Virus record (IMG/VR): IMGVR_UViG_3300013426_000025
Location: 1-64,000 of that record
DNA length: 64,000 bases
DNA from: a virus
Taxonomy: Duplodnaviria; Caudoviricetes
Strand: one strand, 5' to 3'
Shown one piece after another: positions 24,147 through 36,300 of this stretch (its first letter is position 1; the number at the start of each line of letters is the position of its first letter). The translations under genes were made by a program, and so were the position numbers. The notes beneath the pieces are model-generated. The model was not told the DNA's origin, made no database searches, and was given only the letters and a program-made list of their open reading frames with translations.

Positions 24147-27100
24147 TTAACAATATTTTTTAGCCTGTTTTCTAATAGTAGCATCTGATATTTCCAGACC
24201 TTGCTCCTTTGCTATATTTTGAATCGTATCTAATATTTCTTTTTCTCTTTTTCCACTTTCTTTTGAAAGATTACTTTTTAAATCAATCATACCAATATCT
24301 TCCAAAGTTTTTAGTATTTTTGAGATTTGTGTTTCTTCATTTGTTTCTGCAACATTTTCAGAGTTGTCAATATCTTCAACTTCAGCATTTTGCTTATTTA
24401 TAATACCTGTTGGCTGTTCTTCTTCAGCAAAGTGTTCCCATGCTTCTTCCTCTTTCAGTACTTCAGCATCTTTTTCTTTAAGTGCAGAATTTTTAATTTC
24501 GTCTACACTCATTTCCATAAACTCTCCTTTATTACCTAGTTTTGTAAGAGGTGCAAATATTGCTCCTGTAATTCTTCTATTACTATAAACATCAGAGATT
24601 TTTTTCCACAAAGTATCATCGGCACTATTCACAAAGTATGGTAATTTATAATTAGCATGAAATAGCAAACCTTTTTCATCAGGTTCTGTTTTTACTTTCA
24701 CTCTTGGTACTATTGATTTGTCATGCCAATTATTTTGTACAAATTGGTCTAACATCACTGTATCGTCATATAATGAAAAATCGCCCCTAAAAGTAGTAAC
24801 ATATCCAGGTATCATCTCTTTAAGTTGTACAGGAAGCAAATTCATAAAGGTTTTAGGTGAAAATCCTATACCTCCTTTAAAGAAATTATATTTGAACAAA
24901 CTAATTGCAAGTTTTTTCCCTTCTTCTCCTGACTTGTACAAATCAATCCAAGCACTGCTAAGTTTATCCTTAACTGACTGGTCAAGACCTGTAGTATCAA
25001 TCCTTAAGAAAGGTCTACCACTATTACTGTCAGTATTTACTCTCATAGATTGTATAAGAAAGTTATCTTTAAATTTGTCCTTATACCCTCTCTTGATGAA
25101 GTATTTTGGAAATTGTTCTACAAAGGCACCACATTCACTATAATCAATGCATCCAGATTGTACAAGTAAATACGATTGGAAGAAATCACTAAGTTTACCA
25201 AATGCTTTTCTGTCTCTTAGTAACCTCTTCTTAAATGAATCTGGTATTCTATTAAACATTCTTCTGAAGGTATTACTATTGGCAGGCAATTTATTTCCAA
25301 ATAAATTCCTTGCTATACCAAGAGTTCTCATAAAATTATTTAATATAGGATGCATTTCTGCTACAGAATCTGCTGTTATAACAGTTTTACCATCCCCAAG
25401 TGTAACATAATCAGATGTATCTAATAATTTTTCTTCTGTAATAAGATTATCAAGAATCAATGGTCCTACAGCACTACTGATGGAATTAAACCTTGTAACA
25501 AATGAAGGCATTTTTAATTGCTGAGCCACTTTACTAAGTCTTGAATAAGCAAGTAAAATTTTGTAATTAATTTTATCATCTCCTTCTTTAATACTTTGTA
25601 TAATCTCTTCCCTTGTAAGAGGTTCATTGTCTATCTTTGAAGTGTCTCCTATTTTCTCAGCATATTTTTGTAACATTATATCTACAATGTTATTAAAATA
25701 AAGACTGGGGTTTTCAAGAGATTTAATACTATAGTTTTTTAGTGCTCTTGTTATAACATTAGAAGATAATAGTAAAGCAGCATCTTCAAATGGTAAACCC
25801 ATTCTGATAGCAGCATTTAGTACATTTACTGTATTAACGTTAATGTTCATAAGGTTTAGTATAGGGTCTTTTACAGCATCAGCCGCACTTGCTACCAAAC
25901 TACCTAATATCTTTCCTATATATTCTCCATTAATATTCTTCTGAGCATCAATCTCCATACCATTAATAAACTCAAGACCACAAATACTATATTTAATAGG
26001 ATTTTGATAGTCTAAATCGAATAATGCTTCAGCATTAAGCCTCAGGTAATTACTTTCAAGAGTTGCATGTGCTACTTTTGCTACAGCAAAAATAGATAGA
26101 ATAGAGCCTGCCACACTATTTTGTTTATAGAATTGAACGTGGGTATCTATGAAACTAAGGTTTTTCTCAGTGTAACAAGCCTCCTTTAAATCATAAATAC
26201 TCATTTTCTGTAAAGTGTCCCAATCATACCCCATTCTATATGCTTGTACCATATAGCCTGTTCTCTTCTGTTGGTCAAAACCTCCTGGATTAAGAAGTTT
26301 ATCGGTAGTGTCTTCATGTGTTAGTACACTTAAAGACATATCTATTATTTTATTATTTCTGTATCTTCTACCTTCTGTTGGTTTTTTAACTTCAAAAGCA
26401 ATTTTTCTATACTCTCTTGCTATATCAGGAAAAGTTGTCACTGCCTTTCTTTCATCTGTACCTATTTGATTTAAAAACATCTTAATATCATCACGTTTAG
26501 ACTTACCTAATTTGTCTATCAAAATGTCAGCAATTTCTTTATTTTTCTTTCTAAATATAGGTAAATCTTTACGCATAATATACATTTTGTCCACATCGTA
26601 GTCACTACCTGTAATTGTAGTAATCTCATAGGGCATCATAATACCCTCACCAGCTTCTCTTGGCATAAATCCTACGATCTTACAAGGAGCACAACTATAT
26701 TTATCCTCAGTAGGGATTCTATAAGTAACCAAATCAAGTAATTCTGGGCTTGTTGCTTCTACTGCTTTAATATCAATATTGCCATTTTCATCCATAAATT
26801 GTAACAATTCGTCACTATATATAGGAGCAAACACTTCATAATAAGCAACCCCTGCTTGGTTCTCTTTTACATATTCTTCATAAGACTGATTCTGTTTTGT
26901 TAATTCAGATAAAATATTGTCCCTAAAATTAAGTGCGTCATCATAACCTGTTTCCCCATCAAATTCCTTTACAGAACTTAATTCTATTGAATCAAATTTT
27001 CCAAAGTTTTCTATTGAATTGTCTGTCTTTAAAGACATAGCTGCAACTCCTTTTACTGATAGGTTAGGATTATTTTCTTTCCATTCCTTATATTCAGTTG

Positions 27101-30100
27101 GAGCATAATCTGCGTTAAAAGGTGTTACAGCATCAGCAGTAAAACCAAAATCTGCATACAAGACAGGAAGACCTCCCAATACTGTACCACTATCATTGCT
27201 ATAGGAGATATAGTAACAATCTAATTTCTTACCACCAGCCGCAATTGCCATCTGCATTAATTTATTAAGTCTGTGGTCATGTTTAACAGCACTAAACACA
27301 GATATAATATCTCCATCTTTAGTGATGGCAATTCCTGCTTTACCATCTTCAGTCAATAAACACAAATCATTTTCATAATCAGCTGCTTCATGTACATCTA
27401 CTATCCAACCATTTTGATTCTCTTTTTTACAAGATTTAATAGCATTATGAAAATCAACAGCAGATGCTTTTTTTACAGGTTGTTTTGTTGAGGGTATGCC
27501 TCTCTTGGAGAGTTCTTTATCTAAAGCATCACTAACTAAATCCACCTGTCTTGATACATCAGAATCTGCTTTATCATCTGATTCTATAATATCTTTAACT
27601 ATCTCACTAACAATTGGCTTTAGATAGTCTGGAGTATAACTTAATAATGTATAAGCCAAATCACCAAATTCTATAATATCCACACCAGCATAGTCATTTA
27701 AAAGATTTAAGGCTTCACTTACTGCATAAGTTGTAAGAAAGTTATCTCTTTTCGCTTTGTCTTTATTCTGCAAAAGAGCACGTTGATTCTCACTAAGGTC
27801 TACAAGCTTTACTTGTACCCTATCAACATTAATAAGATGTTTGTATCTTTGTACAAGTTCATCTGATAATTTCGGAATAACAACTTGATTATATGTTCCT
27901 TCTTTTTTGACTATATTTTTTTGCCAATTAATTTTAAAGGGATTAGGCTTACTTGCTTTCTTAAGAGATGTTTTCTTTTTTTCTTTTTCAAATTGACTTC
28001 TGGTCTTAAGAAGTTTGCCATTTTTATCCTTAAAAACAATATTAAGTTGTCTTGATGTACCAAAGTTACTGACTTGTACTACAGGACCGCCTGCTATTTT
28101 TTGCTTATTAATTCTATTTTTTATTATAGAGTTAATAAGTTGCTCTACTCTCTTGGATTGTACTGGGTCTCCTAATGGTATTCTAAATTCACCATCTTCA
28201 TTTAAAGAACAAGCCAAAAGCAAATCTACACCATATCTTGGAGAAGATAGTATTTCTCTCTTTAATACAGCAGATAATGCTTGGTTTCTTTCCAAAGGTG
28301 TGCCTGTAAGGTTCAACTCTCTTGCTAATTGGTCTATACTATCTTGTATATTCTCTGCAATGGTTTCCTCGTATTCTCTTCTAAATTCTTCTGCTGATAA
28401 ATTTCTGCCTTCTACACTATAAGTAGTATTTGGATTTAAATCTGATGGTATAATCATTCTTATTTGAGAACCATGTGCTTGCTCATGGTTTTTAAAATGC
28501 TCAGGTACCTCTTGTTGTATGCAATAATCTGTAAAGTCTGATTCGTGTACATAAATGTCATTGTACTTACCATCTTTATATATCCTATCATTAATATAAT
28601 CAATTGCTGCTCTTGTACCATCTTTCATGTTTAAGAAGGGTACTAAATCTAATGGGGCAGACAATCCTGCTTTAGTAGTAGACTCAAATTGTATAGTATC
28701 AATACCTTTGTCATACCCACCTTTTGTCATACTTTGTTCCATGACTGCATATAAAGCACCAAGAAGATTAGGTTTACCTGTATTTTCTCCACTAATAATT
28801 GCATCAGCCATCATAAGTAGGTACTCAGAATTTTTATACTGATAGTTTACTTTCATATTCTGTAAAGGAGCATCCTCTACTCTTGTAGAAACCACTGTAC
28901 TGGAGAATACAAAAGGTTTAAGAGGCTGAAAAGCAAACTGTAAGTCTTGATACTTATAATCACCACTCCTTAATTTTTTGTAAATCTCTTCAGAATGTCT
29001 ATCCCATTTACCAAACATAAACATCTTTTTTCTTAAAGAAGATGGACTAGAATAACCTTCAGCATCTGCAACATTAACTTCTTCGTAACTTTCGATAATC
29101 TTATCAAAAGTTTCCTTGGCTGCAATATAGTTAGGGTCATCCCCATCCATTTCAGCAAGTTTTCTATCAAAGATAACTCTAAGGTTATCTATAATATTTG
29201 ATTTATAACTATCAAAATCTTTAAGAATAATAGTTCTAAATCTACCATCAGAAACTCTTTTACCATCAAAGTCTGTTGCTTCTATATTTGCTCTAATACC
29301 AGGAGAATGAACTTGAGCCATTCTCTTTTGTTCATCCTCTGTGTCTTCGTAATAAGCCTTATCTGTAATAAGCAATTCAGATATATTAGTTGTGGCAAGG
29401 AAGTCATTCCAAATGAAGTTTCTAAGACTTTCTTCTATGTTTGCAACATCAATGTTTTTAATTCTCTTTGCTGCCTCCATAGTACCATTAGTCTTCCACT
29501 CCTTTAATATAGAGTCTGCTCTAAGGTCCATTTCCTTTGCAATAGTCTCTAAAGCAAGTTTGTTAAGTTTTGCTTCATTTACTTCTTTACCTTCAACTTT
29601 ATCATTTATCAATTTACCTAATTCACTACCGTTATTTCTATACTTTTCTATAAAATCCAAGAAACAGAATTTGTCTCCTCTCTTTGTATCAAAATTTTTA
29701 ATAAGAACATCTGAACCCTTGCTGTAGTTTTCCTTTCTAAGTTTTACTGTTTGTATTCTGCTTAACTCCTGGTCAAATACAAGTTTTAAAGCCTTAGTGA
29801 TATTATTCTTATAATTTGCACCTCTGTAACTATAGAATTTAATAAACTCAGAAGAAGGTTTGTTAGATAGCATGGGCACTCTAAACCAAGCAGGTACTAA
29901 TGACTCCGATTGTTTAGTAGTTTCTCTCCAGTATTCAGTAAGAATAGATAAAGTACATTCAATATCATCCATTGCTTTATCTCCTTTGCTGTGCATATAT
30001 CCATGACCATTGAAAGTAAGATTTACTTTATGTTCAAATATTCTTGCTGCTTCAGGGTCAGTAGCAAGCAATTGTAACATTGAGTTTCTCCAACCTCTTG

Positions 30101-33100
30101 TTAGATTATCATTACCATTTGCACCATCTCTGTCTTTATATCTAAACCAATCTATTTGCCCATACTCATCATTTAACCATTTATTAAAATCAGATAATTT
30201 TGTTGGGTCATTAGGGTCAATATTCCTTGATTTTCTAAAATTCTGAAACAACTTAGTAAGATATGAAGGTATTGTATAGGTTTGATACATTTTACCATTA
30301 GTATAGAACGAGGAAGGTATTGTATTCTCTATTTTATCTGTTATTGGTGTTATTAACTTTCCTATATTACCAATAATACCATTATCTGAAACTTTACCTG
30401 AAAAAGGATTCCATTTTTCATTCTTCTTATTCTTCTCTAATGCTTTTATAATATAACCTATAAGGTTGTTACTATTATGGAATACATCTTTATCAAGTAC
30501 TGATAGAACATCTTCTTTTACTGTAGGGTAACCCATACCAGATATTACCTGAGCAAGTTTATCTGCTATTTCTTCAGCAGTATCTGCTGAATATGTAGTA
30601 TGAGTAAGTTCATCATGCAGTTTTATAATCTCTTGTAAGGTTGCTTCATTAACAGAACCACTAGAAGTAAATAAAGGATGTTCTCCTATATTATATAATG
30701 CTGTAATAGCCCTTTTTGCATCACTTAAAGCAGGGGCTGAGTTAGCAGGAATACTTACTAAAGAACCGTCTGCATTTTTGATTATATCATATAATTGCAC
30801 ATATTTACTAAATACACCAAAGAACTGAGATTGAAATACTGTTTCATCTCCTGTTTTATCTTTTAATCTTGGAAGTATCTGTTTTAACCATGGGTTTTTA
30901 TCTGCCTGTGCTTCAAGTTTTTCTATCATAGTAGAAAGGTTAACACTTCCTTGTACCCATTTAAGAATACTATTTGTGCACTCTCTTGCATCAAGTCTGT
31001 CATATAAGCCCCATCTGTCAACTTTAAAAGAACCATCGGGGTTTGTTTTGTAACATTGCAATAATGCTTGTTTTACAATTTGAGACATACTTTGAAGTAC
31101 ATCTAAAGTTCTACTATCTACTTGCCAAGATTCTTGTGTATCTCCCTCAAGTTCTGCTACTGCATCTTTGTCTTCCTTATCTTCGTTAGGATTAAGTTCA
31201 GACATGTCTACTTCTTCTGCTTTAGCATTACCATTACTATCTATTTTAATTCCAAATCCTTCTACAGCAGCAAATTCTACTATACCTAATTGTATTAAAG
31301 CATCAAAATTATCATAGAGTAAGTCTGCTACATCATAGTCATCTTCTGTTATATTAGGATTTCTACCTTCTCCTGTTTCCTCATCTAATTCATAACTAAA
31401 TAACTCATCTCTACAAAAATTGATAACATTCCTAATACCTAATTTTTGAAGTAATTCAAGTCTTGACATACTATCTATATCTTCAAGGTCTTTTTCTGTA
31501 ACAAGACCATTAGTTACAGTAGCAGCAAGTCTTGGGTTCTGTTGTATTTGAGTTAAGGTATCAGATAATTTATATGTTACTTTTCTTGACAATTCATTTA
31601 CTTCAGAAGAAGTAATTGGAGAATTAGTATCAGTAAGACTATTTATCTGTTGTGTTAATCTGTCTTCTACAACTCCCTCATTAAATGTATCAAATTTTTG
31701 TTCCTCTTCATAATCAATCTTACTATCTTGTTCTTGTAAAGCATTATCTGATATAATATCTGCTTTCGTTCTATTATTAATGTAATTAATAGTGTTTAGC
31801 TGTTCTCTAGTAAAAGGTTTTCTTTCCTGTTTAAAAGCAACTGGAATAGTTTTTCTTACACTTATAAAAGCATGTTTTTGATTTGTTACGGGATAATGAA
31901 TACTAAAATTAGATATATCATCATCATTAGCAGCAATCAAAGGTCTAAAATCTTCTCTTATAAGGTTTTCAATATCCTTATGAGATAATTCACTTTTATA
32001 AATACTGACAGGAATTTCTATCTTGTATTCCCCATCTTCTTTTTTGAGGGTAAATCTCCTTAATCCTCTGTCCTTACTAATTCTGATTTGTTCTAATATA
32101 GATTCACGCCTTTTAACTAGAGCTTCTTCTATTTTTTCTCTTCCTTTTGTATAAGAAGAAGCATTGGATTCACCTATTTCACCCTTATCTATATGTAAAC
32201 TGATTGTAGATATTGCTTTTTCAAGGTAAGTACCATTAATGTCTTTACCCAAGTATTTAGATAAAAATTGCTTAAGTTTATTATACAACTTAGAAAGAAT
32301 TGAAGTCTTTTTATCTGTTTTTATATTAGACAAAGTGTCTTGTAATATAGGATTAGTCATCACATTGGCGATAAACTCTTTTACATGCTTTGCTCTCCCT
32401 TCTAAAGTATCAATGTTATAGCCGTAATCAATAAACAGATTATGGTTATTATTTAAATCTGTTATTATATCCCAAACATCATTTACAAATTTAGTTTCTT
32501 CTTTACTTCCTTTGTTTAATATAACATTATCTACAGCATTTGCTGTTACTGTATGTACTAATTCGTGTGCTATAATATAATCGATTCTCTTACTATCTAT
32601 AGATACAAGTTTAGGATTATAATTGAGATATACCACCTTACCTTGTATTCCCACATTCATTGTACTTTCAAGATTATCTACAGGAGTTATAGTAATTGAA
32701 TATCCTGTTTTCTCTAACTTATTAATAATTTGCTGAGACAATTCATTGACATAAGATTTCCTGTCAGTATTATCTTCAATGTTTGTAGTTATTTTTGAGG
32801 TAGGTTTTGTTTCTACACCACTATCAACATGATGTTTATTGTTGTACTCTTTTATAGAATTTTTGATTGCCTGCTTGAAATTATTAATACTTTGTGATAC
32901 AGAGCCTTTGTCTGTACTATAATTAGTATTTATATTTCTTCCTTGTAAAGTAGTTATCTCACTTTCGTAAAAATCCCTGTTAGCACTAATTTTTTCAGTA
33001 TTCAATACAGGTCTTGTGACAAGTACTTGATATTTGCCATCTTTAGTTTCTTTTATTATTACTGACCTTTTATCAAACCATTGTAGTGCTTCTGTATATT

Positions 33101-33395
33101 CTTTCTGTGCTTCTTGTAATGTGTCTTTTATAATAGGTTTGCTATAATTTTTATCCCAAAACTCAACAACTGTATTATCATAAACAGTAGATGCGGGGGC
33201 AAAATAATGCCCCTGCACATACTGTTCTGATGGGAAAGGTAGTTCACCTCTTTCAAATAATTCTTGATTTTCTGGTAAACTCTGATATTCTTGTAATATC
33301 AACTCTAAATCTCCAGAAGTCATATTAAACATATCAAGCATATCTTGATATTCTTTAGACTTCTTTTGTAAAGATGTTACACAATTTGTCTTCAT
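24147..33395 (-). CDS. Virion-packaged DNA-dependent RNA polymerase (crAss-type) with zincin and GNAT-like domains
   Basis: RIPTEDKYS and catalytic GSDYDVDK (DxDxD at 26589-26603); HELVH at 32553-32567; about 3082 aa from ATG 33395. Confidence 0.9.
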   Translation of the reverse strand: MKTNCVTSLQKKSKEYQDMLDMFNMTSGDLELILQEYQSLPENQELFERGELPFPSEQYVQGHYFAPASTVYDNTVVEFWDKNYSKPIIKDTLQEAQKEYTEALQWFDKRSVIIKETKDGKYQVLVTRPVLNTEKISANRDFYESEITTLQGRNINTNYSTDKGSVSQSINNFKQAIKNSIKEYNNKHHVDSGVETKPTSKITTNIEDNTDRKSYVNELSQQIINKLEKTGYSITITPVDNLESTMNVGIQGKVVYLNYNPKLVSIDSKRIDYIIAHELVHTVTANAVDNVILNKGSKEETKFVNDVWDIITDLNNNHNLFIDYGYNIDTLEGRAKHVKEFIANVMTNPILQDTLSNIKTDKKTSILSKLYNKLKQFLSKYLGKDINGTYLEKAISTISLHIDKGEIGESNASSYTKGREKIEEALVKRRESILEQIRISKDRGLRRFTLKKEDGEYKIEIPVSIYKSELSHKDIENLIREDFRPLIAANDDDISNFSIHYPVTNQKHAFISVRKTIPVAFKQERKPFTREQLNTINYINNRTKADIISDNALQEQDSKIDYEEEQKFDTFNEGVVEDRLTQQINSLTDTNSPITSSEVNELSRKVTYKLSDTLTQIQQNPRLAATVTNGLVTEKDLEDIDSMSRLELLQKLGIRNVINFCRDELFSYELDEETGEGRNPNITEDDYDVADLLYDNFDALIQLGIVEFAAVEGFGIKIDSNGNAKAEEVDMSELNPNEDKEDKDAVAELEGDTQESWQVDSRTLDVLQSMSQIVKQALLQCYKTNPDGSFKVDRWGLYDRLDARECTNSILKWVQGSVNLSTMIEKLEAQADKNPWLKQILPRLKDKTGDETVFQSQFFGVFSKYVQLYDIIKNADGSLVSIPANSAPALSDAKRAITALYNIGEHPLFTSSGSVNEATLQEIIKLHDELTHTTYSADTAEEIADKLAQVISGMGYPTVKEDVLSVLDKDVFHNSNNLIGYIIKALEKNKKNEKWNPFSGKVSDNGIIGNIGKLITPITDKIENTIPSSFYTNGKMYQTYTIPSYLTKLFQNFRKSRNIDPNDPTKLSDFNKWLNDEYGQIDWFRYKDRDGANGNDNLTRGWRNSMLQLLATDPEAARIFEHKVNLTFNGHGYMHSKGDKAMDDIECTLSILTEYWRETTKQSESLVPAWFRVPMLSNKPSSEFIKFYSYRGANYKNNITKALKLVFDQELSRIQTVKLRKENYSKGSDVLIKNFDTKRGDKFCFLDFIEKYRNNGSELGKLINDKVEGKEVNEAKLNKLALETIAKEMDLRADSILKEWKTNGTMEAAKRIKNIDVANIEESLRNFIWNDFLATTNISELLITDKAYYEDTEDEQKRMAQVHSPGIRANIEATDFDGKRVSDGRFRTIILKDFDSYKSNIIDNLRVIFDRKLAEMDGDDPNYIAAKETFDKIIESYEEVNVADAEGYSSPSSLRKKMFMFGKWDRHSEEIYKKLRSGDYKYQDLQFAFQPLKPFVFSSTVVSTRVEDAPLQNMKVNYQYKNSEYLLMMADAIISGENTGKPNLLGALYAVMEQSMTKGGYDKGIDTIQFESTTKAGLSAPLDLVPFLNMKDGTRAAIDYINDRIYKDGKYNDIYVHESDFTDYCIQQEVPEHFKNHEQAHGSQIRMIIPSDLNPNTTYSVEGRNLSAEEFRREYEETIAENIQDSIDQLARELNLTGTPLERNQALSAVLKREILSSPRYGVDLLLACSLNEDGEFRIPLGDPVQSKRVEQLINSIIKNRINKQKIAGGPVVQVSNFGTSRQLNIVFKDKNGKLLKTRSQFEKEKKKTSLKKASKPNPFKINWQKNIVKKEGTYNQVVIPKLSDELVQRYKHLINVDRVQVKLVDLSENQRALLQNKDKAKRDNFLTTYAVSEALNLLNDYAGVDIIEFGDLAYTLLSYTPDYLKPIVSEIVKDIIESDDKADSDVSRQVDLVSDALDKELSKRGIPSTKQPVKKASAVDFHNAIKSCKKENQNGWIVDVHEAADYENDLCLLTEDGKAGIAITKDGDIISVFSAVKHDHRLNKLMQMAIAAGGKKLDCYYISYSNDSGTVLGGLPVLYADFGFTADAVTPFNADYAPTEYKEWKENNPNLSVKGVAAMSLKTDNSIENFGKFDSIELSSVKEFDGETGYDDALNFRDNILSELTKQNQSYEEYVKENQAGVAYYEVFAPIYSDELLQFMDENGNIDIKAVEATSPELLDLVTYRIPTEDKYSCAPCKIVGFMPREAGEGIMMPYEITTITGSDYDVDKMYIMRKDLPIFRKKNKEIADILIDKLGKSKRDDIKMFLNQIGTDERKAVTTFPDIAREYRKIAFEVKKPTEGRRYRNNKIIDMSLSVLTHEDTTDKLLNPGGFDQQKRTGYMVQAYRMGYDWDTLQKMSIYDLKEACYTEKNLSFIDTHVQFYKQNSVAGSILSIFAVAKVAHATLESNYLRLNAEALFDLDYQNPIKYSICGLEFINGMEIDAQKNINGEYIGKILGSLVASAADAVKDPILNLMNINVNTVNVLNAAIRMGLPFEDAALLLSSNVITRALKNYSIKSLENPSLYFNNIVDIMLQKYAEKIGDTSKIDNEPLTREEIIQSIKEGDDKINYKILLAYSRLSKVAQQLKMPSFVTRFNSISSAVGPLILDNLITEEKLLDTSDYVTLGDGKTVITADSVAEMHPILNNFMRTLGIARNLFGNKLPANSNTFRRMFNRIPDSFKKRLLRDRKAFGKLSDFFQSYLLVQSGCIDYSECGAFVEQFPKYFIKRGYKDKFKDNFLIQSMRVNTDSNSGRPFLRIDTTGLDQSVKDKLSSAWIDLYKSGEEGKKLAISLFKYNFFKGGIGFSPKTFMNLLPVQLKEMIPGYVTTFRGDFSLYDDTVMLDQFVQNNWHDKSIVPRVKVKTEPDEKGLLFHANYKLPYFVNSADDTLWKKISDVYSNRRITGAIFAPLTKLGNKGEFMEMSVDEIKNSALKEKDAEVLKEEEAWEHFAEEEQPTGIINKQNAEVEDIDNSENVAETNEETQISKILKTLEDIGMIDLKSNLSKESGKREKEILDTIQNIAKEQGLEISDATIRKQAKKYC

Positions 33396-33397
33396 AT

Positions 33398-36300
33398 TTA
33401 TCTGCAATTTTCAATCATTTCTAACCACGTATCAATATTATTAATACCTTGTGTAAGAATTTTTTTACTTCTTAAAAAGGCTTCTTGGTCTTCCTGTTCT
33501 TTAGGTAAAGCATCTCCAAATTTTTTAGTTAAAACCTCTTTGACTCTCTTCCTATTTTCTTTATTTCTTATTATTCCTGCAAAGGTATGTAAATTATCTG
33601 AATTATGCAAGGTAGGAGATGATTTTTCTTCTATTTCATTAACATTTTTCTTAGATTTCCTCACTCTTTTAGGTTTTGGTTGTTCAGGCTCTTCTTCAAA
33701 AGATACAGAAGTTTGTACTGGAGCAGGTTTTTTATTATTATCCCTACTTTCTTTTGCATTAGGCTCTACAGTAGGTTCTGTTGTAGTATTTGAATTATTA
33801 TTTTCTTCAAAATCAAAATCCAATTGCTCCTTCTTACCTTCTGCCTCTATTTTTTCTTTTGCTTTTTCTGCTTGTTTTTTCTTTTCAATTCTATCTATAA
33901 CCTTCAAAGCATCTTCCCCTTTTAGTACTTTAACATGATTACCTTGGTCAAACTCTAAAACAAGAGGATTATTACTATCGGTATTCACAACATAAGCATC
34001 GTATACACCGTCTTTAATATCTGGTTTAATAGCAGGATTATCATTATATTGAACTACATAATCTACTCTTTGTATAGTTTCACTATCTGTAATTACTTTA
34101 TCATTTTCATCATAATAAACATTATCTATAATCCTATAAGTTTTACCATCAAGCAGTACTGTCTTACCTACTTTCTCTACTAATGCAGAACCTCTTCTTG
34201 CTTCTATTGGTCTTGCTTGTTGTACATTAATAGGTTTACCATCAGTATCTACATTATAAATATCAAAATAACTTCCTGCTGTACCAAGTAATGCTGCATC
34301 TGTTTGTAAAGCACCTGCTTCATCCATCATTTTCATTTCGTCAACATTCTTTATTGTTGAAGCAGTAAAATTCACTCTAAAACCGTTATCTACATTAAAG
34401 ATAGCATTTATCAGTGATTGTACTTCAGCACTTTGGTCGGCACTTGGTTTATCAAGATTTAACCTAAATACATCAACACCGTTTGCTCTGATAGTAATAT
34501 TATTTCTGTCCTTAGTACCAATAAATATGTTATTTGTATTGTCAAGGTTTATCCAGTGGCACAACTCTCTAACAGCATTATATCTTACAGCATGGTCAGT
34601 ATTATATAGCATTCTTATGGTTTCTATAAGATGGTCTTTGAGAGGACTGTCTTTAAGTTCACCGACTTTAGTAGGCTTAATTGCTATAGGGATATAGTCA
34701 CCATTGGAACTCTTAACGAGCATGAATAAGTTACCAGCATTACCTATATCGTCTCTTACAAGATTTACAGAGGCGTTGAGTGCTTTAGACATAACGTATT
34801 TAGTGGTCATCTGTATCATCCAAGGTATCTCATCAAACTGTACACCTAAAGGATTCCTTGTAGCATCATTAATAAGTTCTGACACACTTCTTATTGAGCT
34901 TTCTTCATCTGTTGCAAGTCTTTTAACAAGATTACCTGTAGCAATAAATTTAATCTTGCTCTTAAAGTAAGGGTATACCGTAAATCTATCATTTGCTCTA
35001 TCACCAACAAATGTGTGCATACCATGAGTATAGAAGGCAGGCAAAAATCTATTTCTAAATTCTTTTTCTTGGGCTGTAGGATTGTTTCTATCCTTACTAG
35101 ATATATAACCCATACTACCTATAACCAAGTAGTTTTTACCATCTGCTGTAATAACTCCTCCTTTTTTTCCACCATGTATCTTCTTTACAGCATCTGTATA
35201 TTCTACTACAAGTAATGGAATCTTTTCAAGACACGCATCATCTAACTCATTTGCCACAGGGTTTGTAATTACTACTTGTACATCAGGGTTTAATTCTCTA
35301 ATCCTTGCAAGTTCATAATCTACAATTTCCTGCATATTAATGCCCATATTATCACACCATTTAAAAAATCTACCCATTATATCTGTTTCACTTCTTGATT
35401 TTCTCAGAACTATAGTTTTAAATTTTCTAAGTGGTTCAATAACATATCTATAAAAAGGAAGCCCTAAGAAGGAACTTGCTTTATCTGCTTGAGAAGTTTC
35501 TCTATCAACATCTTCAATAGATGTAGGAAGATTAGTAGGCATACTTTGGACTTCTACACCTTTTGTTTGTACTTCCTCTTCTTCTGTAGGACTATTTACA
35601 CTTTCAGTAGTTTCAGTATGATTACTCTCTTCTACAGACTCAGATGTAGTTTCAGGTGTAGTAGGATCTTCTTTTGTAGGTTCTTCATTAGATTTAGTAC
35701 TTTCTTCTGGTTTTGTTTCATTAGATTTCTCAGTAGTTTTTATACTATTATCTTCATCACTAAAATCTATACTTTCTTGTTGTCCTTCTTTAACTGCTTT
35801 TTCTTTTTCTTCTTGAGTAGGCTCATATTCATCAACTTTAGGTTTTTCCTCTATTTGCTTCTTTTCCTCTTGTTTAGCCTTCTCTTCTTTTGCTTTATTT
35901 TCTTCTCTCTTTCTTTTTGCTTCTCTCTTCTGAACTTTTGTTGCACTTCTTTGATACCCTACTTGGTCAATACTATTAAGAATGTTATCAATCCAACTTT
36001 TAGTATTATTGTCTACATTAGGGTCATCAATTGCTCTTTCCAATGCAAGAATTGCATCTTTAGTTGTTTTTGCTGACTCTGTAATAATCATAACATTTCT
36101 TTTAATATTATCCTTACCTTGTTTTAGTATATCCCAAGTATCAATTATTTTATTAACTTCATCAAAAAATTTATTGTTTTCTATAGCATTGTATAATACA
36201 GTATTTCTTTTTGTATCTGCTGTACCATCAGGGTTAACAAAACCTATTTTAGATAGTTCTTCAAGTACACCTCTTGAAGCAGAGTTGAGTTTTTTATAAA

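Follow-up and report, generated by a model that had tools for sequence, protein, structure and literature searches.

Crassvirales are the most abundant human gut phages, and the early steps of their infection are poorly understood. The polymerase proteins of phi14:2 and crAss001 are known to travel in the virion as cargo, to leave it either before the DNA or together with it, and to require partial unfolding and refolding (bioRxiv 10.1101/2020.03.07.982082; PMC10172136). Here we analyze a relative of these polymerases encoded in a 64,000-nucleotide stretch of phage DNA (hereafter the window; positions 1 to 64,000 of the IMG/VR record IMGVR_UViG_3300013426_000025, a complete 105.7-kb virus record), whose catalytic half holds a 365-residue insertion that ends in a module predicted to adopt the GNAT acetyltransferase fold. 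While there are precedents for polymerases of the gp66 type, for GNATs as parts of polyvalent proteins and for modifying enzymes that are injected, the module family, its placement in the polymerase catalytic half, its alternation with an N-terminal position and its cassette-like exchange are new relative to the literature searched, in which no paper on a GNAT insertion in crAss polymerases was found.

The window gene resembles that of gp66 of phi14:2 (PDB 6VR4, Drobysheva et al. 2021) in that connector and DxDxD barrel show collinear homology, and, like the crAss polymerase cargo genes of gp66 and crAss001, it is very large and has a giant gene on either side. It differs in that 46 residues of gp66 stand against 417 in the window polymerase, and no inserted enzyme module has been described for gp66 (bioRxiv 10.1101/2020.03.07.982082). 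RimI-like GNATs were reported in polyvalent proteins, often beside an ADP-ribosyltransferase (ART), and their delivery with the DNA was proposed (Iyer et al. 2017, PMC5512222); two GNAT families are described in that work, with no mention of crAss-like phages or RNA polymerase hosts. With these GNATs, compared here by description, the window module shares the RimI-like fold, the occurrence both as solo proteins and embedded in giant virion-delivered proteins, and the ART-PolyVal and LPD neighbors, whereas its position inside the catalytic half of an enzyme differs from a place in a string of domains.

A further likeness is found in gp4 of phage Caron, a minor capsid protein in the MuF slot, where the same module family sits on a head-internal protein encoded beside the portal gene, although as a C-terminal appendage of a 525-residue head protein and not as an internal insert in a polymerase of ~3080 residues. 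Structurally, the predicted module comes closest to RimI (5isv), the N-acetyltransferase for alanine of ribosomal protein S18, and to the archaeal and eukaryotic Nat catalytic subunits; its acidic residue in the predicted strand beta5 and its tyrosine in the alpha4 ‘Y..GF’ motif may correspond to the catalytic base and acid of RimI. It differs from them by a sequence identity of 10–12%, by the missing Q/R-x-x-G-x-G/A loop, and by extra N- and C-terminal helices together with a lineage-specific beta-hairpin after beta5. The mode of action proposed for the module has a purely functional analogue in AcrVA5, a mobile-element GNAT that acetylates Cas12a and so covalently modifies a host protein. 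The packaged ADP-ribosyltransferase Alt of T4 is a functional analogue in the same sense, as an enzyme that is present at DNA entry and modifies host proteins (PMC5512222).

The polymerase gene and the site of the insertion

The gene and the elements that frame the insertion are given below, with residues counted from the first codon of the open reading frame (ORF; TTG 33407).

24147–33407, minus strand: virion RNA polymerase gene (gp66-like), from the ORF list, its translation and the collinear phmmer match to PDB 6VR4
27981–28046, minus strand: conserved left flank, residues 1788–1809 (...LNIVFKDKNGKLLKTRSQFEKE), 69–86% identical in homologues without the insert
27981–27995, minus strand: QFEKE, residues 1805–1809, the end of the left flank
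26886–27980, minus strand: whole insertion, residues 1810–2174 (365 residues), from flank distances in 121 homologues, their alignment and the gp66 alignment
26856–26885, minus strand: conserved right flank SYEEYVKENQ, residues 2175–2184, from homologue flank comparison and alignment
26709–26720, minus strand: RIPT, residues 2230–2233, located in the translation
26589–26603, minus strand: catalytic DxDxD motif DYDVD, residues 2269–2273, aligning with gp66 DFDID 1361–1365

The initial annotation had described a block of about 365 residues inside the catalytic region of this polymerase and had named an alignment to other crAss polymerases as the way to check the indel. Such an alignment upholds it, as the block is not continuous with the polymerase core. 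We measured the distance between two conserved flanks (65–86% identical) in 121 homologues and found 11–38 residues in 116 of them, 374 residues in the window polymerase and its database copy P0002, and 283–295 residues in P0003, P0004 and P0007, which carry the same insert. In P0021 the distance is 174 residues, and the sequence in between is unrelated to the insert of the window. This helix-rich segment (residues ~2761–2936, without a Pfam match) occupies exactly the same loop, which therefore tolerates more than one kind of cargo.

The comparison with gp66 leads to the same site. By phmmer, residues 1626–1787 align with gp66 1109–1263 and residues 2205–2286 with gp66 1310–1392, and it is between these two stretches that the lengths of 417 and 46 residues diverge. 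As the gp66 Connector spans residues 1095–1238 and the catalytic DFDID residues 1361–1365 (bioRxiv 10.1101/2020.03.07.982082), the insertion is placed just past the connector, where the second double-psi beta-barrel region with the DxDxD motif begins, and 95 residues separate its end from DYDVD. The junctions read ...EKE/KKKT and ...KQNQ/SYEE. All sequence strings quoted in the earlier description were recovered from the translation, among them DGKAGIAITKDGDIISVFS (residues 2021–2039, minus strand) and FNADYAP (residues 2097–2103, minus strand), both within the module. Its borders of 26888–27985 lie a few bases from the refined ones, while the start of the module, formerly set near 27475, had to be moved further upstream to residue 1947 (27569).

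Two origins of the insert were rejected. Recent foreign origin as judged by composition is ruled out, since the guanine-plus-cytosine content is 0.30–0.34 in the insert and 0.32–0.33 in the flanks and the values for third codon positions are similar. An intein or intron origin was discarded because the insert contains no Pfam Hint or endonuclease domain, the junction residues (K...Q/S) are not intein-like and the frame is continuous.

The ORF itself comprises 3086 codons in an unbroken frame, and by sequence homology it is assigned to the crAss-type virion RNA polymerases of the gp66 family. A phmmer search of the polymerase against all PDB sequences gave phi14:2 gp66 (6VR4) as the sole match (E 5.9e-16, five collinear stretches), and a database search gave 2124 polymerase homologues. 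Among named phages, cr116_1 (Crassvirales, Steigviridae, Pamirivirus) comes nearest with 42% identity over the C-terminal third, and a whole-gene megablast against GenBank phages returned no match. Same-strand ORFs of 2098 and 1326 residues adjoin the gene, with the same synteny in relatives, as in the block of giant transcription/cargo genes of Crassvirales genomes. By analogy with phi14:2 and crAss001, the window polymerase is most likely packaged in the virion and ejected as well. The true start is likely the ATG at codon 5 (33395), because P0002 (MKTNC...), an identical database copy with 3082 residues, begins four codons after TTG 33407 (33393–33407). The upstream 2098-residue gene ends at 33398 and overlaps or abuts the polymerase gene by a few bases.

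Fold, family and partners of the inserted module

The insertion can be divided into the following parts, of which the last three belong to the module.

27864–27980, minus strand: low-confidence, probably disordered basic linker, residues 1810–1848 (AlphaFold2 of residues 1790–2185, model residues 21–60, predicted local distance difference test score (pLDDT) 43–66)
27570–27863, minus strand: lineage-specific helical segment, residues 1849–1946 (AlphaFold2 helices; a gap in other insert-bearing polymerases)
26886–27569, minus strand: conserved mobile module, residues 1947–2174 (228 residues with N-terminal helix, GNAT core and C-terminal helix; phmmer family and AlphaFold2)
27009–27488, minus strand: predicted GNAT-fold core, residues 1974–2133 (VIA-align, model range 28–187; Foldseek)
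26892–26948, minus strand: predicted C-terminal helix, residues 2154–2172, with the family motif YD..L..RD (AlphaFold2 helix at model residues 208–226; family consensus)

Modeled by AlphaFold2 with the family alignment, the module reaches a pLDDT of 94.6 and a predicted template modeling score of 0.89. An exhaustive structural comparison with VIA-align against 48,161 PDB representatives returned GNAT acetyltransferases for all 50 of the top 50 chains. The best match was E. coli RimI (5isv_A) with a Z-score of 10.6 and a root-mean-square deviation of 3.0 Å (134/156 residues), followed by PA4794 and then by Ard1, NatB, NatA and other GNATs, many of them N-terminal acetyltransferases, at Z 9.0–10.0. 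The Foldseek run on the insert that had been suggested as a check likewise gave a top list consisting entirely of GNATs, with probabilities up to 0.97 and E-values of only about 1e-3, and a longer model comprising the insert and its flanks led to the same result. According to these models, the C-terminal 228 residues are a self-contained module with a GNAT fold, as had been proposed for this half of the insert.

A full HMMER (phmmer) scan of the insert against 1.84 billion cluster representatives yielded 1094 representatives at E≤1e-3 and, among the matches listed, all align to residues ~1947–2172. Many of them are stand-alone proteins of ~200 residues that match the module over their full length, its N-terminal and C-terminal helices included, from which it follows that a whole small protein was inserted; 40 such proteins together with the module make up our alignment A1. 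Among 156 family rows, 53 are solo proteins, 52 multidomain proteins and 51 reside in proteins of at least 1500 residues or in polymerases. The insert is also matched by PHROG 2563 (function unknown; E 3.7e-6), an ESM Atlas search with the whole insert gave unnamed viral clusters only, and the NCBIfam search of the insert gave noise far under the cutoffs. A PADLOC match of the insert to MTase_III (18 bits) was judged to be due to chance. The module thus represents a large, unnamed family of more than 1000 sequence clusters that is missed by Pfam and NCBIfam.

Elsewhere the module is accompanied by LPD1, LPD3, LPD13 and ART-PolyVal, the hallmark domains of polyvalent proteins, and structural matches in the BFVD comprise an LPD-containing protein and a crAss-like giant protein with E-values down to 5e-16. 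In the cultured Microbacterium phage Caron it forms the C-terminus of the minor capsid protein, whose gene directly follows the portal gene, and this copy aligns with the query module in hhalign at 99.9% (E 8e-33). The resemblance to GNAT domains of phage polyvalent proteins pointed out in the initial annotation is therefore borne out, and the module belongs to the polyvalent and head-packaged repertoire. Relatives of the window polymerase are polyvalent in their own right and carry N-terminal accessory domains, namely NADAR, cpYpsA/SLOG, ART-PolyVal and Kinase-PolyVal besides a PIF1-type helicase, and in P0005, P0006, P0008, P0009, P0029, P0033, P0037 and P0122 the same module is located N-terminal of the polymerase core.

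Other giant carriers of the module, including P0124 and P0126, were considered as polymerases and rejected, as they have neither polymerase flanks nor a polymerase-type DxDxD motif; the sole D-x-D-x-D string of P0124 falls inside the GNAT module. Some giant polyvalent proteins, such as P0164 (residues 1264–1455 and 1626–1818) and P0196 (residues 962–1134 and 2097–2269), hold two copies of the module, and the set of P0164, P0196, P0155 and P0161 shows either two copies or the module along with a canonical, Pfam-recognized GNAT in one chain. A 39-kb record of Limnohabitans phage DC33 (L010; PQ492659.1) labeled Inoviridae encodes a hypothetical protein of 3126 residues with the module, and for such a gene this label looks doubtful.

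The first half of the insertion, 137 residues long, was unrecognized in the initial annotation and has stayed so. For residues 1810–1946, no relative was found among the listed rows of the phmmer search of ~1.8 billion representatives, no match in a word-indexed search for longer proteins, no usable match in the ESM Atlas and no match by BLAST against all fetched proteins and the six frames of the window. The last result also rules out an origin by duplication from elsewhere in the gene. The AlphaFold2 model of residues 1790–2185 (overall pLDDT 85), built without homologues for this part, contains helices at model residues 60–69, 84–90, 95–118, 125–135 and 138–179 with a pLDDT of 63–87, and the final helix of ~40 residues (1927–1968) continues straight into the module. 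About 85 residues of the first half are missing in the insert-bearing P0003, P0004 and P0007. We read this part as a linker with a predicted helical stalk and not as a second enzyme.

Exchange of the cassette between polymerases

In the module tree, a single supported clade unites the internal copies with those at the N-terminus of polymerases. The polymerase core tree, calculated from 1217 columns and replacing a flank tree of ~500 columns with long branches, places the four insert-bearing proteins in four separate and well-supported positions, and forcing their cores together costs 673 log-likelihood units (approximately unbiased (AU) test, p=1.8e-8). The core tree and the AU test thereby rule out a single vertical origin of the insert. 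The nearest cores to the query, P0011 (64% identity) and P0010 (57%), are without the insert and have loops of 11–13 residues.

The clearest view of the exchange is offered by P0007 and P0066, whose proteins are 92% identical over 1320 residues up to the junction. In the DNA, a stretch of 3.8 kb with 92.3% identity leads up to the point where P0007 has an 823-nt cassette and P0066 an unrelated loop of 82 nt; beyond it the identity resumes at 92.6%. The modules are 57–65% identical where the cores are 42–52% identical, and no recent cassette donor was found among the sampled sequences. Related polymerases thus gain or lose the cassette, which is exchanged as a unit, and the best explanation is that homologous recombination within the conserved flanks carries it from one polymerase backbone to another. 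Repeated precise loss in place of transfer could account for part of the patchy distribution and is to be counted against this view. Over residues 1–472, P0007 and P0066 are only 38% identical, and the N-terminal accessory region was therefore also swapped.

In some relatives the polymerase ORF breaks near the RIPT and DxDxD region and a homing-endonuclease ORF comes next. One of these (L003:10412–10934; HNH_3, E 1.4e-7) starts ~30 nt past the end of the homology to the uninterrupted gene and ~200 nt downstream of the GNAT cassette, another is gp050 of cr116_1 (L004:9405–10052; LAGLIDADG_2, E 8.7e-25). These ORFs probably represent insertions of the intron type, which might favor co-conversion of the neighboring cassette. 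At the two loci of P0125 (L007 and L008), many very short ORFs are called around the insert-bearing polymerase fragment, which suggests stop-codon reassignment or heavy fragmentation.

Candidate active site and competing explanations

The positions that bear on a possible catalytic activity are the following.

27219–27221, minus strand: Asp2063 codon (module D117; KKLDCY, residues 2060–2065, in the predicted strand beta5 of the AlphaFold2 model), Asp in 157/159 rows
27156–27158, minus strand: Tyr2084 codon (module Y138; LYADFGF, residues 2083–2089, predicted helix alpha4, GNAT motif B), Tyr in 157/158 rows
27270–27290, minus strand: beta4-alpha3 loop AVKHDHR, residues 2040–2046, without Gly, from column counts and the clade alignment

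Column counts over 161 distinct family rows revealed the near-invariant module positions F40, V57, G79, A81, G86, S90, A108, G112, D117, L134, Y138 and G142, the last of which (Gly2088) is kept in 157/157 rows. In RimI we take Glu103 to lie in beta5 and Tyr115 in the ‘LYESLGF’ helix. Judged from the motif pattern and the predicted secondary structure, Asp2063 and Tyr2084 are plausible candidates for the general base and the general acid, in the roles that Glu103 and Tyr115 play in RimI catalysis (PMC3347575). Selection on the module was assessed by the ratio of nonsynonymous to synonymous substitutions (dN/dS) against a close relative (L006). Over 83 GNAT codons dN/dS is 0.078 at a dS of 0.68, which equals the purifying selection on the polymerase core (0.06–0.08) and indicates a functional module, while the last 40 module codons are relaxed (0.86, small sample). 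In the same relative the first ~50 nt of the contig (L006:1–71), which lie upstream of the HRLNKL codons of the GNAT domain, are non-homologous to the window and contain in-frame stops, so this contig start reflects either chimerism at the contig end or a truncated module copy that was rearranged.

On these grounds we consider it somewhat better than even, with a probability of roughly 0.55, that the cassette delivers an RimI-like GNAT, injected with the polymerase, that acylates host proteins before phage gene expression. The cassette, made up of a flexible basic linker, an orphan helical segment and the complete RimI-like GNAT-fold module, would be tolerated by a surface loop, usually short and variable in length, that lies between connector and barrel. 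As a part of the ejected polymerase the module would enter the host cell and refold inside, use acetyl- or acyl-coenzyme A (CoA) with Asp2063 as putative base and Tyr2084 as putative acid, and acylate amino groups of host proteins such as defense, transcription or translation factors ahead of any phage gene expression. This effector role is strengthened by the purifying selection and by the conserved Asp and Tyr at the expected catalytic positions.

Several observations weigh against it. The Pfam search of the insert gave no match, with the Pfam GNAT models (Acetyltransf_1/7/10, GNAT_acetyltran) staying below threshold; only 2 of 41 family members reach a Pfam GNAT match at E 0.03, and PDB sequence searches of the insert with the single sequence and with a profile gave nothing relevant. 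The equivalence of Asp2063 and Tyr2084 to the RimI residues is one of motif pattern and predicted secondary structure. In GNATs, the beta4-alpha3 loop usually reads Q/R-x-x-G-x-G/A and binds the CoA pyrophosphate. Much of the family has x-G-K-G-A at this loop, whereas the crAss clade has (K/G)D(H/S)R throughout, in a register set by a weak alignment (8.8 bits) to a Pfam-recognized GNAT that shares a polyvalent protein with a copy of the module. Because the Gly-rich loop reads KHDHR in the query module, CoA binding by this copy is not to be assumed, and the effector role is weakened to this extent. The module beside the catalytic barrel could also serve the polymerase itself and not the host.

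The missing loop glycines are what a GNAT-fold pseudoenzyme would show that has lost CoA catalysis and keeps a binding or structural role, such as docking of the ejected polymerase onto a partner from host or phage, or assistance in packaging or refolding. The absence of the Gly-rich loop from the whole crAss clade, the Pfam GNAT models without a match and the long helix joining the module to the polymerase agree with such a role, which we regard as a possible but clearly less probable alternative. The loss of the loop Gly is not decisive because GNATs bind CoA mainly through backbone amides, and the near-invariance of Asp2063, Tyr2084 and Gly2088 over 161 diverse members including solo proteins resembles an active-site pattern more than an interface; the module is moreover independent of the polymerase context, as it is also found N-terminally and alone. 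If the module is an active acyltransferase, its target may also be an aminoacyl-tRNA, a polyamine, an antibiotic-like compound or a nucleotide immune signal, by which it would stop host translation or quench a defense signal. The GNAT fold alone does not fix the acceptor, the GNAT toxins TacT, AtaT and ItaT act on aminoacyl-tRNA, and tabtoxin resistance, polyamine, aminoglycoside and puromycin acetyltransferases lie within 1–2 Z units of RimI. The best and most of the structural neighbors are protein N-terminal or lysine acetyltransferases (RimI, Ard1, NatA, NatB, NatC, NatE, Naa50, Naa60, PAT), a weak argument given that Z differences under 1 are ties, and polyvalent-protein GNATs were placed in the RimI-like clade (Iyer et al., PMC5512222); a non-protein target appears unlikely.

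We think it rather improbable that the module acts in cis or on phage cargo, be it in the producing cell or once ejected; acetylation of the polymerase or of the neighboring giant proteins could, for instance, control self-inhibition, packaging or activation. Its position adjoins the catalytic barrel, the same polymerase carries an N-terminal zincin-like domain, and gp66 is self-inhibited and needs an activation step (bioRxiv 10.1101/2020.03.07.982082). Against this, the module is frequent on proteins other than polymerases and as a gene of its own, and it is not part of the polymerase mechanism, since P0011, P0010 and P0066, the latter 92% identical to P0007, do without it. The patchy distribution, the cassette exchange and the homing-endonuclease ORFs that interrupt the same gene region in relatives would suit a passenger without function or a selfish element, for instance an intein or what is left of a mobile insertion; yet neither a Hint/intein nor an endonuclease domain is present, the junctions are not of intein type, the frame is continuous and the composition equals that of the flanks. 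The dN/dS of 0.078 measured for the GNAT part all but rules out a passenger without function.

Returning to the injected effector, an extension of this reading that we put forward tentatively is that crAss-like virion polymerases have a second cargo slot, internal to the chain, in the loop where the DxDxD barrel begins. Whole enzyme cassettes, in this case a GNAT on a helical stalk, would be swapped at this slot between co-infecting phages, maybe through homing-endonuclease gene conversion. Because the slot adjoins the barrel with the active site, the enzyme would stay with the first transcription complex that forms on the incoming genome and could act on whichever host factor meets this complex, instead of diffusing freely. 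Already under the main reading, the injected polymerase would also be a delivery vehicle for an exchangeable enzyme, inside its catalytic half as well as at its N-terminus. Polymerases with and without the cassette form natural near-isogenic pairs, which makes a role in host takeover or counter-defense directly testable, and the insertion site is a candidate permissive position for engineered cargo in crAss-like polymerases of laboratory phage-host systems.

One further feature of the gene lies in the N-terminal accessory region.

32553–32567, minus strand: HELVH zincin motif (Pfam PF01863, YgjP-like)

The PF01863 match covers residues ~143–290 of the polymerase with an E-value of 2.1e-4 and 21.8 bits, below the cutoff of 26, and this zincin/YgjP-like region could process the polymerase or other cargo.

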